From sequence record OR062946.1: 64,000 nucleotides of DNA; one strand, written 5' to 3'. The stretch comes from Escherichia phage 310Ecol104PP. The notes below the pieces were generated by a model. That model was not told where the DNA came from. It did not search any database and saw only the letters and a program-made list of their open reading frames with translations. Each line of letters starts with the position of its first letter. Position 1 is the stretch's first letter. The translations under genes were made by a program, and so were the position numbers. Below are positions 14,620 through 50,544 of this stretch, one piece after another.

Positions 14620-14885
14620 TGTTCATCCTTTAGAGTTTGGTTTACAGCTCTATTATAAATCAATTCATCATTAAGCTCAGTCAAAGACCTATGGTACGTG
14701 GTTCTAACTTTATTTCCTTGCATCCAGTGTTTGACGTAAATGAAACCTTGCTCTACACATTTTTTAAAAATTCGTTCGTCTTTTTGAGCTCGGAATTCTG
14801 GATTGCATCTAAAAAATTGATTTACGTGACCGTAATCACGTGTAGTATTACCTTCATTTTCATAAATAGTGTGAACGACAAACAT
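14616..14885 (-). CDS. hypothetical 89-aa protein (30.1 position)
   Basis: ORF overlapping the ligase start by 4 nt. Confidence 0.5.
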   Translation of the reverse strand: MFVVHTIYENEGNTTRDYGHVNQFFRCNPEFRAQKDERIFKKCVEQGFIYVKHWMQGNKVRTTYHRSLTELNDELIYNRAVNQTLKDEQ

Positions 14886-15748
14886 TAGAATGCTCCTTGG
14901 AAAATATTATCACCACTAGTAAATCTATTAAAATACCCTGCATCACCAGGCTTAGTATAACTCCACGTATGGAATGGATTCATATGATACGGGTGTGTAT
15001 AATATGGATTATATGGATGTGTATAATATGGATTATACGGATTAAATCCAGGAGTTCTCCAGGTAGTGTTCCAACGAAAAGAATCGTTTTTAACCATCTT
15101 CTCAATTACATCTTTTATAGCTTTTTCACTATCAAAACTTTCTTTATTTTCCTTCGGTGAAAAAAGCTTATTTTCTACATCATTCCATGTATAAACTCGC
15201 TGAGCGGTTTTTGGAATATTGTCACGCTCTCCTCGCGCCATCCAATAAACAGGAACATTTAATATTTCACTCGCATGATCGCAGTGGTGAGCGAGATCGT
15301 CAATATAACAAATTACGTTATATTTCTCTTTTGCCTTTTTGAACAACTCTTCTTTTGAAGAATCATGACCACACATCATTACTTCTGAGAAGGCACCAGG
15401 AAAAAGAGCATTCAAATTAAATTGACGATTCAACAGAGCGTCAATAGAATCACCCAACGCTGTAACAGCTACAAAATTATAATCTTCTTTTAATTTGTTA
15501 ATTACGCACAGGGCGTCTTTATATGGAGACAAATAACGAATAAAATCTGAACGATTGTATTTTTCAATTAACTTGACGCCAAGTTCTTCATCACAATTAA
15601 AGAGTTTACCCGGAGAAATAAATTTCTCATCTTGAATCATTTTTAAAATATGTTCTAACGGAAGATTATATTTCTGAGCAAAATAAGGAAGGCCTGATTG
15701 CCAGCTTAAACATACTCCATCAATATCAGTTAAAATAGTAGGCTTCAT
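14885..15748 (-). CDS. HAD-superfamily phosphatase-like protein with Tyr/Pro-rich C-terminal tail (30.2 position)
   Basis: N-terminal DIDGV motif typical of HAD hydrolases; tail NPYNPYYTHPYNPYYTHPY. Confidence 0.65.
   Translation of the reverse strand: MKPTILTDIDGVCLSWQSGLPYFAQKYNLPLEHILKMIQDEKFISPGKLFNCDEELGVKLIEKYNRSDFIRYLSPYKDALCVINKLKEDYNFVAVTALGDSIDALLNRQFNLNALFPGAFSEVMMCGHDSSKEELFKKAKEKYNVICYIDDLAHHCDHASEILNVPVYWMARGERDNIPKTAQRVYTWNDVENKLFSPKENKESFDSEKAIKDVIEKMVKNDSFRWNTTWRTPGFNPYNPYYTHPYNPYYTHPYHMNPFHTWSYTKPGDAGYFNRFTSGDNIFQGAF
14994..15037. repeat. 24-bp tandem duplication inside the 30.2 coding region
   Basis: tgtgtataatatggattata occurs twice with a 4-nt spacer, encoding the repeated peptide. 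Confidence 0.7.
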
Positions 15749-16209
15749 AGAGAGTCTCTTAATAGATTTAACACATCAATAAATTCAGCTTCGGTTAGTA
15801 TTGTATCATCTTTTGTTAGACCACTAGCCATGCTGTGCTTCAAAACTTTTCCTTTCGAGGCTTGTAATGCATCGCGAAAGCCCTTGTTTTGGAACGCTGC
15901 TTCAAAATATGCATTTGTGTATAATTCTTTCCATGCTTCGGAATATCTTGAAAACGGAGTTCCAAGCCAGAACAACGTGCCACGGTCCTGAGCTCTAGCA
16001 TAAGCTCGTCCAGCTTGTTGGGCGGCAAGCCCGGATAACCCAAATATACGACGCTGTTGTTCAACATTTTTCACCTTGCATCCTTGGAGGAATCCTTCGA
16101 GACCTCCAAATTGAATACCATCCATAACGAAAGGCCATTGGGCGAAATTACTTAATGCGCATGATGGCCATCTAAAATTGCTTCTTATCTCTAGCTCAGA
16201 CATTTTCAA
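15745..16209 (-). CDS. NADAR/YbiA-like protein (30.3 position)
   Basis: 154-aa ORF with ALSNFAQWPF motif recalled from NADAR (DUF1768) proteins; assignment from motif memory only. Confidence 0.5.
   Translation of the reverse strand: MKMSELEIRSNFRWPSCALSNFAQWPFVMDGIQFGGLEGFLQGCKVKNVEQQRRIFGLSGLAAQQAGRAYARAQDRGTLFWLGTPFSRYSEAWKELYTNAYFEAAFQNKGFRDALQASKGKVLKHSMASGLTKDDTILTEAEFIDVLNLLRDSL
15840..16067 (-). CDS. embedded alternative-frame ORF within 30.3 (30.3'-like)
   Basis: 75-aa same-strand ORF in a different frame; T4 is remembered to annotate a similar embedded gene. Confidence 0.25.
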   Translation of the reverse strand: MLNNSVVYLGYPGLPPNKLDELMLELRTVARCSGLELRFQDIPKHGKNYTQMHILKQRSKTRAFAMHYKPRKEKF

Positions 16210-16402
16210 TACTTATAATTTCAACATCAGCCCAATGACCATAGCAAGGAAGACGAAATTCAACTGGCCAGTTAGGGTCCTTTTCTAATATAATAGACTG
16301 AACTTGTGGCTCTTCATATTCATCGGTATACGGACCTTTATACGTTACTTTATATGTGACCTTAATGTACTGAATTCCAAAAATCTTATTAATTATATTC
16401 AT
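16196..16402 (-). CDS. hypothetical 68-aa protein (30.4 position)
   Basis: ORF in a tightly packed same-strand train. Confidence 0.5.
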   Translation of the reverse strand: MNIINKIFGIQYIKVTYKVTYKGPYTDEYEEPQVQSIILEKDPNWPVEFRLPCYGHWADVEIISIENV

Positions 16403-16596
16403 ACTAATTCCTTTAATCCGTAAATAGGAGATAATTCATCACCCATACGAAGGTCTTCATTTCCATCTACCCAGGAAACAATATAAGCCTCTTTTATTTG
16501 AATACCACTCCATTTAAATGGAGGTAGAACCTTAGAAATTAATCCAGGTATACCAACTCCCTTTAATTCAACAGTTTGACCTAAAAAGAATTTCAT
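16399..16596 (-). CDS. hypothetical 65-aa protein (30.5 position)
   Basis: ORF with ATGA overlaps to both neighbours. Confidence 0.5.
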   Translation of the reverse strand: MKFFLGQTVELKGVGIPGLISKVLPPFKWSGIQIKEAYIVSWVDGNEDLRMGDELSPIYGLKELV

Positions 16597-16883
16597 TAGA
16601 ACCTCATCTGAAAACCATGCGATTTAACATTACCGCCGCCAATATCAGAAATGTTAATTTCACGCGCAATTGAAGGGTCAATGTCAATTTCACGATTAAG
16701 TTTAGTGATAGCTAAAGTATCGCGGCCATTTACAGTACGGAACTCTAAAGGGCAGACTATATTAACATAGTTTTTAATCGATTCACTAGTAGGCTGCAAA
16801 TGAGCAGGAAGGTCTTTAGGTGCCTTAGAGAAAACCACTTCACAGAAATTTTTGCGGGTATCAAAATAAGTAGTCATAAACAT
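16596..16883 (-). CDS. hypothetical 95-aa protein (30.6 position)
   Basis: ORF in same-strand train. Confidence 0.5.
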   Translation of the reverse strand: MFMTTYFDTRKNFCEVVFSKAPKDLPAHLQPTSESIKNYVNIVCPLEFRTVNGRDTLAITKLNREIDIDPSIAREINISDIGGGNVKSHGFQMRF

Positions 16884-16899
16884 AGTATTTACCTCAGTA

Positions 16900-16915
16900 A
16901 GGGGCCGAAGCCCCT
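16900..16915. terminator. C(UUCG)G-type hairpin between 30.7 and 30.6
   Basis: aGGGGC-cgaa-GCCCCt inverted repeat. Confidence 0.45.
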
Positions 16916-16924
16916 CATTTTATT

Positions 16925-17290
16925 TTAAATATCAAATTCGTTAAGAACTACATCAAAGATTGCTTCAAGATGCTCAGGTTTAGCTCTGTTACTCAGAATA
17001 TGACGAATCCAAGTTTTAACCAGAAGCTTGCGATTAACGCCATTCCAGCAAGGATGAGTCCCTAAATCGCGTTGACGAAAATCATCATCCAATGCGATTT
17101 TAAAAGAAGAACCTTCTTTCGTGATTGAAACCGTGATGCCATTTTCAAATCGCATATAAACGTAGTTAGGAGTCATATACTGTTCAATTTCGCATACTGA
17201 TCCATTTTGATGTTTCCAAAGGCAGATAGTATCAATAGAACCTGCAATACCGTTAGAAACATATTTACGTTCAAAGTTGATGTAATTCAT
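16925..17290 (-). CDS. hypothetical 121-aa protein (30.7 position)
   Basis: ORF preceded by an early-type promoter. Confidence 0.55.
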   Translation of the reverse strand: MNYINFERKYVSNGIAGSIDTICLWKHQNGSVCEIEQYMTPNYVYMRFENGITVSITKEGSSFKIALDDDFRQRDLGTHPCWNGVNRKLLVKTWIRHILSNRAKPEHLEAIFDVVLNEFDI

Positions 17291-17327
17291 TTTTATTCTC
17301 CGAGATGTTTAATTGCGGTACAGGTAT

Positions 17328-17356
17328 ATAATATCATATCCTGTACCAAAGTAAAC
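17328..17356 (-). promoter_or_regulatory. early-type promoter upstream of 30.7
   Basis: GTTTAC, 17 nt, TATTAT on minus strand; overlaps palindrome ggtacagg...cctgtacc. Confidence 0.45.
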
Positions 17357-17360
17357 TATT

Positions 17361-17729
17361 TTATGCAACTTTAATCCAATTATCTAAATTTAATTCACCT
17401 TTGGCTTTCATTTTTTCAATCAAGAGGTCAGCGGTAATACGACCATTTTGATACCACGTAACATCTTCAGAGTAACCAGTTTCTTTATCTTCATAAGTCT
17501 CACAGCGAATTTTACCAAGAATCAAAGTTTTTAATTCGTATGTATCTCCAGTAAAAAAGTTAGTTAACATTATTTTCCAAGAGAAATCATCAGAAGGACC
17601 TTCAGGAGTCATGCAACCTACAAATTCAAATTGTTCTTTGTATAAGTGCCACTGAAGTTCTTTAGTTTCGATAGCTTTATAGCCGTCGTGGTCTTTACCT
17701 TTGATGTATGAGTTAAGATTGATTTTCAT
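17361..17729 (-). CDS. hypothetical 122-aa protein (30.8 position)
   Basis: ORF with AGGAG Shine-Dalgarno. Confidence 0.55.
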   Translation of the reverse strand: MKINLNSYIKGKDHDGYKAIETKELQWHLYKEQFEFVGCMTPEGPSDDFSWKIMLTNFFTGDTYELKTLILGKIRCETYEDKETGYSEDVTWYQNGRITADLLIEKMKAKGELNLDNWIKVA

Positions 17730-17756
17730 TTTATTCTCCTTTGTTTGTGTAAGATA

Positions 17757-17786
17757 ATACTATCACAAAGGAGCCATACTGTAAAC
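17757..17786 (-). promoter_or_regulatory. early-type promoter upstream of 30.8
   Basis: GTTTAC, 17-18 nt, TAGTAT-like -10 on minus strand. Confidence 0.4.
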
Positions 17787-17814
17787 AACTTTGTGCAATC
17801 TTTGGAAAATAAAA

Positions 17815-17836
17815 AAGGACTCCCGAAGGAGTCCTT
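17815..17836 (-). terminator. intrinsic terminator after 30.9
   Basis: 9-bp stem AAGGACTCC-cgaa-GGAGTCCTT followed on the minus transcript by a U-run. Confidence 0.6.
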
Positions 17837-17839
17837 AAC

Positions 17840-18016
17840 TTATGCTTTCTGCTTACCAAAACGAGAAGCATCATCTCGAAGAACCGCACGTGCTCGGCGC
17901 ATGATCTTCTCAACAGTTTGATTGATACGAGAGTTCGACCCACGCTTGTAACCAGCGCGTTTAGAATCACCAACTTTCTTTTCAACTGCTTTCTTTGCTT
18001 TAGCTTGTTTTGCCAT
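17840..18016 (-). CDS. small basic protein (30.9 position), start taken at MAKQAK
   Basis: Lys/Arg-rich ORF; ORF-track start 14 codons upstream lacks a ribosome-binding site. Confidence 0.45.
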   Translation of the reverse strand: MAKQAKAKKAVEKKVGDSKRAGYKRGSNSRINQTVEKIMRRARAVLRDDASRFGKQKA

Positions 18017-18210
18017 TATAAATTCTCTTTTAAATGAAAATGCAGGACTTATTGGCATTGCCTGCGCAAGCCCTCAAGGGGTACTTAGGTTTTAAATATT
18101 TACCGACAGGATAACCATAAACCTCGTCAACATTCAAGAGGTACACCGTAAAACAAAGTTCGACGGCTCCTCGATTTTAGCTCACACTAAGGCAGTGACT
18201 CTCCAATAAA

Positions 18211-18459: not shown

Positions 18460-18606
18460 TTAAAAATTCTCGTTAGAGATTAAAACTCGGTAGTCACGTT
18501 CTTCTGAATTTCATCTTCTTTCGACAGATCTCTCAGTTGTAGACTACCACGTAGAATTGTTCGGTTAACTTATTATTCCGACACCCAATTCATATTATTA
18601 TTTATA

Positions 18607-18972: not shown

Positions 18973-19000
18973 ATAATAACAAATAATTCTTAAAGCATTT
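18973..19000 (-). promoter_or_regulatory. MotA-dependent middle promoter upstream of gene 31
   Basis: aaaTGCTTTA, 12 nt, TATTAT on the minus strand. Confidence 0.5.
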
Positions 19001-20722: not shown

Positions 20723-20752
20723 TATAATATCACAACTCTACCGTAAAGTAAA
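20723..20752 (-). promoter_or_regulatory. early-type promoter upstream of cd.2
   Basis: GTTTAC, 18 nt, TATTAT on minus strand; overlaps palindrome ggtagag...ctctacc. Confidence 0.45.
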
Positions 20753-20755
20753 CTG

Positions 20756-32424: not shown

Positions 32425-32454
32425 ATAGTATCACACTACTACCCTACTGTAAAC
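32425..32454 (-). promoter_or_regulatory. early-type promoter upstream of frd.3
   Basis: GTTTAC, 18 nt, TACTAT on the minus strand. Confidence 0.45.
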
Positions 32455-33134: not shown

Positions 33135-33164
33135 ATAGTACCATAAAGCTTTATGCTTGTAAAC
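33135..33164 (-). promoter_or_regulatory. early-type promoter downstream of the gene 32 terminator
   Basis: GTTTAC, 18 nt, TACTAT, with A/T-rich upstream tract. Confidence 0.45.
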
Positions 33165-33197
33165 CGTTTTGTGAAAAAATTTTTTGAAATAAAAAAA

Positions 33198-33216
33198 GGG
33201 GACCTCTAGGGTCCCC
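33198..33216 (-). terminator. intrinsic terminator of gene 32
   Basis: GGGGACC / GGTCCCC hairpin followed on the minus transcript by U7. Confidence 0.65.
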
Positions 33217-50464: not shown

Positions 50465-50495
50465 TATAGTACCATAGAATGCTTTGGTTGTAAAC
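50465..50495 (-). promoter_or_regulatory. early promoter of motA
   Basis: GTTTAC, 18 nt, TACTAT with A/T-rich upstream tract; sits between the upstream terminator and motA. Confidence 0.5.
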
Positions 50496-50524
50496 CGTTT
50501 TGTGAAAAAATTTTAAAATAAAAA

Positions 50525-50544
50525 GGGAGAGCCGAGGCTCTCCC
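50525..50544 (-). terminator. terminator hairpin after the gene 52 operon
   Basis: GGGAGAG-ccgagg-CTCTCCC followed on the minus transcript by a U-rich run. Confidence 0.5.

Follow-up and report, generated by a model that had tools for sequence, protein, structure and literature searches.

A replaced 30.8 allele in an otherwise T4-like 30.4-30.9 gene block of Escherichia phage 310Ecol104PP

What are the six small open reading frames (ORFs) packed into positions 16196-18016 of Escherichia phage 310Ecol104PP (OR062946.1), how are they expressed, and what might they do for the phage? The stretch of DNA analyzed (here called the window) is 64,000 nucleotides (nt) long, and an original prediction, made from its letters alone, had described the ORFs as individually regulated early genes in the 30.4 to 30.9 positions of a T-even phage and as a typical location of host-takeover and anti-defense functions. 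We find that the phage is a Tequatrovirus and that the ORFs, all on the (−) strand, are orthologs of T4 genes 30.4, 30.5, 30.6, 30.7, 30.8, and 30.9; we have next to no doubt that the block is T4 30.4-30.9 with the anatomy described here. As a whole, we consider it likely that this is a T4 accessory block of six small, soluble, early proteins that are dispensable in the laboratory, with the transcription units, host-binding function, and cassette exchange proposed below.

By megablast, positions 16100-18100 matched 773 phage records, nearly all of them T4-like phages of Escherichia, Shigella, and Yersinia, and the best matches, PinkRuby and teqdroes, were 99.3% identical over the full length. 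The T4 reference annotation (NC_000866) lists the same string on the same strand, namely alt, alt.1, 30 (ligase), 30.1, 30.2, 30.3, 30.3', 30.4-30.9, rIII, and 31, with 30.4-30.9 entered as T4p207-T4p212. The window shows the same synteny, with the six genes in unchanged order between rIII and 30.3/ligase, all on a single strand. Specifically, the ORF table places 30.4 at 16196-16402 (68 amino acids [aa]; isoelectric point [pI], 4.7), 30.5 at 16399-16596 (65 aa), 30.6 at 16596-16883 (95 aa), 30.7 at 16925-17290 (121 aa), 30.8 at 17361-17729 (122 aa; pI, 5.1), and 30.9 at 17840-18016 (58 aa; pI, 11.4; 19 lysine or arginine residues), all on the (−) strand. For 30.9, the T4 start, MAKQAK, was taken as the beginning of the protein; a longer reading, of 72 aa, exists too. 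A Shine-Dalgarno (SD) sequence precedes each of the six ORFs. The original prediction was thus right about the coordinates and sizes of the six ORFs (58-122 aa), and its gene labels are borne out by the megablast matches, the T4 annotation, and the protein identities. Its picture of packed, overlapping stops and starts fits the distal half, where 30.6/30.5, 30.5/30.4, and 30.4/30.3 overlap by 1, 4, and 8 nt, respectively, but not the other junctions, which are gaps of 110 nt (30.9-30.8), 70 nt (30.8-30.7), and 41 nt (30.7-30.6) that house regulatory elements.

The block agrees with T4 in gene order, strand, and lengths, in its junction overlaps, and in its promoters, terminator, and hairpin, and five of the six proteins are 92.6% to 100% identical (30.4, 92.6%; 30.5, 100%; 30.6, 96.8%; 30.7, 96.7%; 30.9, 100%). 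The differences are a 30.8 allele of 122 aa, versus 110 aa in T4, with 38.7% identity; a UUCG rather than a UUCA loop in the hairpin at 16898-16917; and a spacer between rIII and 30.9 that has 44 additional bases in T4, near window position 18155. The feature faithfully reproduces a known, catalogued T4 locus, and its sole window-specific point is the replaced 30.8 allele.

ORFs this short and without known domains could be spurious or decaying in some or all cases, with hairpins and promoters that are chance matches in AT-rich DNA, and a generic sigma-70 scan of the window indeed yielded no more sites than shuffled sequence (18 seen versus 16.7 expected). We give this explanation practically no credence. 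All six ORFs are under purifying selection: the ratio of nonsynonymous to synonymous substitutions (dN/dS; Nei-Gojobori) ranged from 0.03 to 0.36 for every gene with substitutions in comparisons with T4, Gaprivervirus RZ, and Mosigvirus ATK47 (30.9, 0.24; 30.6, 0.07 to 0.13; 30.4, 0.21 to 0.36). They are also conserved in hundreds of genomes across genera; a tblastn search of 50,697 phage records found homologs of 30.4, 30.5, 30.6, 30.7, 30.8, and 30.9 in 710, 852, 770, 994, 1,036, and 1,005 records, respectively, almost all from T4-like enterobacterial phages. For 30.4, the identities were distributed bimodally over the 710 records (448 at ≥80% and 260 at <60%). In T4, five of the six proteins have been detected by mass spectrometry (PMC9697503 supplements). 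Together with a T4-specific promoter pattern that is ~170-fold enriched and strand specific, and with hairpins that have significant z-scores and show covariation (see below), these results refute the spurious-ORF explanation. The six ORFs are genuine, conserved, expressed genes.

Their timing and dispensability are known from T4. As the original prediction had it, expression is early: for T4 30.4-30.8, both RNA and protein are assigned to the early class, and for 30.9 the RNA is, its protein not being scored (PMC9697503 supplements). In HIDEN-SEQ transposon mapping of T4, 30 and 31 were essential, whereas each of 30.1-30.9 had insertions at ≥95% of its TA sites and was classed as non-essential. 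When T4 was assayed by CRISPRi-ART, 30.4, 30.5, 30.7, 30.8, and 30.9 scored "Not Fit," and 30.6 scored "Semi-Fit" (p = 0.067). In the window phage, near-identical promoters suggest that both properties hold as well.

The block spans three transcription units. Both promoters named in the original prediction, at 17328-17356 and 17757-17786, are exact members of a set of 10 matches to an extended T4 early-promoter pattern (GTTTAC-N13-15-TGNTANNAT) in the 64-kb window, all 10 on the (−) strand, where 0.06 would be expected from shuffled sequence. The early promoter for 30.8 (17757-17786, [−] strand; GTTTAC-N14-GTGATAGTAT) differs from that of T4 at two spacer bases and is otherwise the same, and the annotation of phage ASO78A marks an early promoter at the homologous site. 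The early promoter for 30.7 (17328-17356, [−] strand; GTTTAC-N13-ATGATATTAT) is identical in T4 and nearly invariant in Gaprivervirus and Mosigvirus. Transcription is predicted to start near 17750 and near 17321, respectively. An inverted repeat, GGTACAGG...CCTGTACC (17316-17348, [−] strand; −16.1 kcal/mol, z = −4.65), brackets the −10 box of the 30.7 promoter. Only RNA that reads through from the 30.8 promoter could fold it into a hairpin; the ASO78A annotation calls it a rho-independent terminator. Such 7- to 8-bp inverted repeats around the −10 box occur at 3 of the 10 early promoters: this one, GGTAGAG/CTCTACC at 20724-20753, and TAGGGTA/TACCCTA at 32425-32454.

In the arrangement that we propose, 30.9 would be the tail, or last gene, of the rIII unit, closed by a UUCG terminator at 17815-17836. 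No late (TATAAATA) or MotA-type promoter consensus lies within 16196-18210, and no early, middle, or late promoter consensus lies in the interval between rIII and 30.9. The nearest late-promoter consensus (TATAAATA) is at 18599-18606, just upstream of rIII, and the nearest MotA-box middle-promoter match is at 18973-18997, upstream of gene 31, which fits transcription of 30.9 at the end of those units. The spacer between rIII and 30.9 (18017-18210) is unusually long (194 nt), non-coding, and indel-prone; it matched no Rfam family, did not fold significantly (z = −1.6), and contained no promoter consensus. A second unit would start at the early promoter immediately after the 17815-17836 terminator and serve 30.8. 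From the second early promoter, a third unit would run through 30.7, the tetraloop hairpin, and the translationally coupled genes 30.6-30.5-30.4 into 30.3 (adfN), 30.2, 30.1, and 30 (ligase). The claim that the genes are individually regulated was therefore overstated, since six genes share two promoters and one true terminator, and 30.7-30.4 form one message running into 30.3-30.2-30.1-30.

Both UUCG hairpins noted in the original prediction are real, but only one of them is a textbook terminator. The hairpin at 17815-17836 ([−] strand), picked up in a terminator scan, has a 9-bp stem and a UUCG loop followed by UUUUUUAUUUU (U6AU4), and this T-run makes it a canonical intrinsic terminator. 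It folds at −15 kcal/mol (z = −4.2), with none of 200 shuffles folding as well, and is kept after 30.9 in all nine phages compared, which represent at least five genera, with a loop that is always UUCG or UACG. Its stem covaries: both sides were changed in five of the nine pairs, and 94% of cells were paired versus 76% in shuffles (0 of 500 as high). It is a genuine, covarying intrinsic terminator. In comparison, the hairpin at 16898-16917 ([−] strand; noted earlier as 16900-16915), GAGGGGC-UUCG-GCCCCUU, is also stable (−14.1 kcal/mol, z = −3.3; 0 of 200 shuffles fold as well) but lacks a U-tract on the mRNA strand, which continues with UUACUGAGG; a T-run is present on the (+), non-coding strand only. 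On the message, it is therefore a stable tetraloop hairpin, placed directly 5′ of the 30.6 ribosome-binding site at a distance of 3 nt, and it may act as an attenuator or RNA-stabilizing element rather than as a full terminator, the label that some database annotators give it. It is kept in Tequatro-, Gapriver-, and Mosigvirus with differing stems and is absent from the Klebsiella phages examined. Its loop is UUCG in ATK47 and in the natural variant LZ9 (see below), GAAA in RZ, and UUCA in T4, so that stem stability, not loop identity, seems to be conserved. An Rfam search returned nothing above threshold. UUCG-tetraloop intercistronic hairpins of T4 mRNAs, the "CUUCGG hairpins," were reportedly described by Tuerk et al. 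in 1988. Both window hairpins resemble them in being C(UUCG)G-closed, unusually stable, and intercistronic; they differ in that one acts together with a U-tract as a terminator, whereas the other has no U-tract and a loop that is not fixed.

The one gene in which the window departs from T4 does so abruptly. In the DNA alignment, near-complete identity extends through rIII, 30.9, the terminator, and the 30.8 promoter and leader to ATGAAA, collapses over exactly the 30.8 ORF, and returns at the stop codon and the 30.7 promoter. Despite 38.7% identity, the protein still belongs to the T4 family (PF06019 at E = 8e-42; phrog_1507). It has 95% identity to the allele of Gaprivervirus RZ, 89% to that of Mosigvirus ATK47, and 64% to 72% to those of Klebsiella phages; in the 1,036 records with a 30.8 homolog, 78 alleles were ≥90% identical to that of the window and 636, T4-type alleles included, were <60% identical. 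RZ and ATK47 are themselves mosaic relative to the window when compared gene by gene (30.4, 43% to 46%; 30.5, 64% to 71%; 30.7, 92% to 93% identity), and homologs of 30.8 also occur in unrelated contexts, in an Aeromonas T4-like phage and a phi92-like phage. A deletion in nature affects the same place: variant LZ9 (FN868251, 1027-1162 and 452-849) lacks 30.7 and 30.8, and its 30.8 promoter is fused to the 30.6 hairpin.

These boundaries recall the promoter-early stem-loop (PeSL) cassettes of T4-type phages (Arbiol et al. 2010, PMC2839356; Comeau et al. 2014, PMC4122927), for which the passages of these papers used here give a T4/PST consensus of stem-loop, TTTACW-N17-TAYWAT, SD, and ATG. The 30.9|30.8 spacer (17836-17730) has this layout, with a T-run hairpin, TTTACA-N17-TAGTAT, AGGAG, and ATG. 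The link of PeSLs to indels and gene replacements, as those passages describe it, is also seen here: the 30.8 replacement is bounded by both elements, and the LZ9 deletion of 30.7-30.8 ends in them. Recombination between PeSL cassettes produces mini-circles, for which PMC2839356 used inverse PCR; the cassettes here are recognized from their sequence. PMC2839356 makes no reference to 30.7-30.9 or rIII, and the passages of PMC4122927 used here do not name the locus. Elsewhere in the window, the layout of an early promoter directly after a T-run terminator hairpin occurs at 33135-33200 and 50466-50535, which with 17757-17836 makes 3 of the 10 early promoters. PeSL-type cassettes of terminator, promoter, and SD would insulate each unit and supply homology for cassette exchange, and such exchange would explain both a 39%-identical 30.8 in otherwise T4-identical DNA and the absence of 30.7 and 30.8 from LZ9. 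We thus propose that 30.8 was probably swapped by recombination within the cassettes.

Further variation was seen around the block. The spacer between rIII and 30.9 is enlarged in LZ9 by ~200 extra bases, an insert in which no tRNA was found. Between 30.7 and 30.5, ATK47 carries ~700 nt (~2294-2999) without a detectable 30.6 homolog, which points to a different gene in the 30.6 slot; the 30.4 of this phage is 46% identical. The block expands in Klebsiella phages: in the interval that separates 30.8 from 30.7, KpnBM7 carries two additional ORFs (~530 and 477 nt) and Roth21 at least one (510 nt), and two tiny annotated ORFs lie between rIII and 30.9. A metagenomic ORF of 154 aa bears both PF08010 (30.3) and PF06919 (30.7), probably from a deletion that fused 30.7 to 30.3 with loss of 30.6-30.4.

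Do the proteins resemble anything that would reveal what they do? All six are predicted to be soluble, with no hydrophobic segment; 30.4 and 30.8 are acidic, and 30.9 is very basic (19 of 58 residues are lysine or arginine), with an invariant core, SKRAxYKRxSNxRI...RARxV. Pfam matched only the self-named families PF06919 (30.7) and PF06019 (30.8), every PHROGs match was of "unknown function," and NCBIfam, PADLOC, and PDB sequence searches with the six proteins returned nothing. No PDB chain was related by sequence, either in single-sequence searches with all six proteins or in profile searches with 30.7, 30.8, and 30.9: nothing matched the 30.8 profile; that of 30.7 gave WD-repeat matches only, at E of about 0.1, which we judge to be chance; and a 25-residue match between the 30.9 family profile (residues 30-54) and a helix of the nucleoid-occlusion protein SlmA (RINQLFERIEAQLRQVLRE, residues 122-146; E = 0.1) is probably chance as well. 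Homologs of 30.7, 30.8, and 30.9 among 5.8 billion proteins were all from phages or metagenomes and carried no other domains. For 30.6, an exhaustive phmmer search of 1.84 billion representatives gave six matches, comprising full or partial 30.6-type proteins of T4-like phages and one spurious match, an 820-aa low-complexity repeat protein. In the searches made, none of the six had a detectable homolog outside phages, and no sequence or fold similarity to any characterized member of the known defense and anti-defense families was found.

At the structural level, an AlphaFold2 model of 30.8 (34 homologs; query without Met1) was confident (pLDDT, 95.5), with seven strands and a C-terminal helix, and a fold search in BFVD retrieved the 30.8 family itself only. 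For 30.7, one of five models was good, with moderate confidence (pLDDT, 78), and the proteins that it matched were generic sheet-plus-helix ones. Similar size and topology suggested that 30.7 and 30.8 might be paralogs, which a profile-profile probability of 0.3% rejects. The original prediction had proposed profile searches and structure prediction as a check; for 30.7-30.9 (profiles against PDB) and 30.7 and 30.8 (models), these gave no informative relative. Its statement that no ORF has a recognizable motif thus holds and, for 30.7 and 30.8, extends to the level of the fold.

A lead to function comes from published work on 30.5. T4 30.5 kills cells when co-expressed with the NLR-related sensor bNACHT11, host polyphosphate kinase (Ppk) co-immunoprecipitates with it, and T4 escapes bNACHT11 when 30.5 and two other triggers are deleted; T2 gp6 (CoaA) and gp57 (GlpK) are parallel bNACHT11 cases (bioRxiv 10.1101/2024.12.17.629029). 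The window 30.5 is identical at 65 of 65 residues to the tested T4 activator (NP_049819), which, like the other five T4 proteins, is small and made early. So far, 30.5 is a trigger of immunity, not an inhibitor.

Another lead is the neighboring gene. T4 30.3 encodes AdfN, an orphan, antitoxin-like NADAR ADP-ribosylglycohydrolase that removes DarT1 ADP-ribosylation and is non-essential unless DarTG1 is present (PMC11257639, HIDEN-SEQ preprint). In the window, 30.3/adfN (15745-16203, [−] strand; PF08010) lies on the same message as 30.7-30.4, is full length, and is 95.5% identical to T4, from which the phage is predicted to be DarTG1 resistant; RB69, which has a frameshifted adfN copy, is DarTG1 sensitive (PMC11257639). 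Like the genes studied here, adfN, the immediate downstream neighbor of 30.4 on the same early message, is non-essential without the matching defense; unlike 30.4-30.9, it encodes an enzyme with cellular homologs.

From 30.5, the dispensability of the genes, and the absence of enzyme-like features, we infer that the six proteins probably bind host components early and stoichiometrically, with a conditional benefit to the phage and a potential to be immunogenic. Each would most likely bind some macromolecule of the host during the first minutes of infection; by analogy with 30.5, the other five (30.4, 30.6, 30.7, 30.8, and 30.9) would bind host factors as well, and for 30.9, which is very basic, the target would be nucleic acid or the ribosome. 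Proteins of this kind would benefit the phage only on particular hosts or in particular physiological states and, as a side effect, could be sensed by NLR-like immune receptors.

Several points weigh against this reading. The binder model draws on one member, 30.5, and on the lack of an enzyme-like fold, and since the confident 30.8 model and the moderate 30.7 model resemble nothing informative, structure speaks neither for nor against it. Promoter and terminator activity in this phage is deduced from its letters and from T4. The 30.8|30.7 cassette follows the PeSL plan only loosely and is not a textbook PeSL, because its stem-loop overlaps the −10 box instead of preceding the promoter. Synonymous divergence between the window and T4 classes of 30.8 is saturated (dS of ~2; dN/dS, 0.27), which indicates replacement by an old allele and neither rapid divergence nor demonstrable positive selection. 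Finally, in the parts of the HIDEN-SEQ study used here, none of the six genes is named among the main-text hits, which come from a handful of defense systems (RexAB, RnlAB, CBASS, DarTG1, DarTG2, and Mokosh I), M9 medium, and clinical strains.

The last point bears equally on the idea that the block is an anti-defense island, in which at least one of the six proteins directly inhibits a specific immune system, as AdfN does DarTG1, and is kept because hosts carry different systems. The genes sit directly upstream of adfN and are co-transcribed with it; they are early, dispensable, small, and widely conserved; 30.8, 30.7, 30.6, and 30.4 vary in allele or in presence, as counter-defense loci typically do; and other small T4 ORFs have proved to be inhibitors (nrdC.1 against Septu and tk.4 against DarTG2; HIDEN-SEQ paper). 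Yet, in the HIDEN-SEQ rows used here, the adjusted p was 1 for all six T4 genes in the comparisons of the reference with the delta-rnlA library and of K-12 with the uropathogenic E. coli strain CFE299 (a log2 fold change of 3.2 for 30.8 insertions in one comparison was not significant, p = 0.19), 30.5 activates immunity, and no similarity to any characterized protein was found. We therefore regard direct inhibition as possible but unlikely. The claim of host-takeover and anti-defense functions in the original prediction thus survives in part: host interaction is established for T4 30.5 (Ppk and bNACHT11), and anti-defense activity is validated for the adjacent adfN, but none of the six was conditionally required in the two T4 comparisons used here, and 30.5 proved to be an immunity trigger.

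Alternatively, the proteins could serve processes of the phage itself, 30.9 as a basic nucleic-acid chaperone and the others as minor replication or nucleotide-metabolism factors, in keeping with a position between cd, 31, and ligase. The cluster is embedded among DNA-metabolism genes, the extremely basic 30.9 hardly varies (T4, 100% identity; two Klebsiella phages, ~86%), and the 30.6 knockdown left the marginal "Semi-Fit" signal mentioned above. Against such roles, transposon insertions in rich medium were tolerated at essentially every TA site in all six genes, the sole known partner of 30.5 is a host enzyme, and LZ9 naturally does without 30.7 and 30.8; we find this alternative improbable. 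Host binding remains our preferred explanation.

Should 30.8 resemble 30.5 in binding a host protein, one that is polymorphic, or itself be seen by a polymorphic immune sensor, its slot might be hot-swappable, with two deeply diverged classes (39% identical, same family) exchanged by way of the promoter cassettes on either side and retained for this reason in genomes otherwise ≥97% identical over the block; the whole block might then be a set of host-enzyme binders whose surfaces NLR-like sensors detect. This idea is speculative, and we hold it to be rather doubtful; maintenance of the 30.8 dimorphism by host polymorphism, taken separately, is no less conjectural.

Further downstream, gene 30.2 (14885-15748) contains, in its 3′ part (14975-15045), one more NPYYTHPY repeat unit than its T4 counterpart (287 versus 278 aa). 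The residues that follow the repeat differ from T4, and the remainder is ~97% identical.

For the biology of T4-like phages, the 30.8 allele offers a clean case, found in nature, of probable cassette exchange at elements that combine promoter and terminator. In addition, the block holds five conserved early proteins, carried by ~700 to 1,000 phages and made within minutes, that are fair targets in the search for host-takeover factors or immunity triggers, a search made worthwhile by the 30.5-Ppk-bNACHT11 and AdfN results from the same block.

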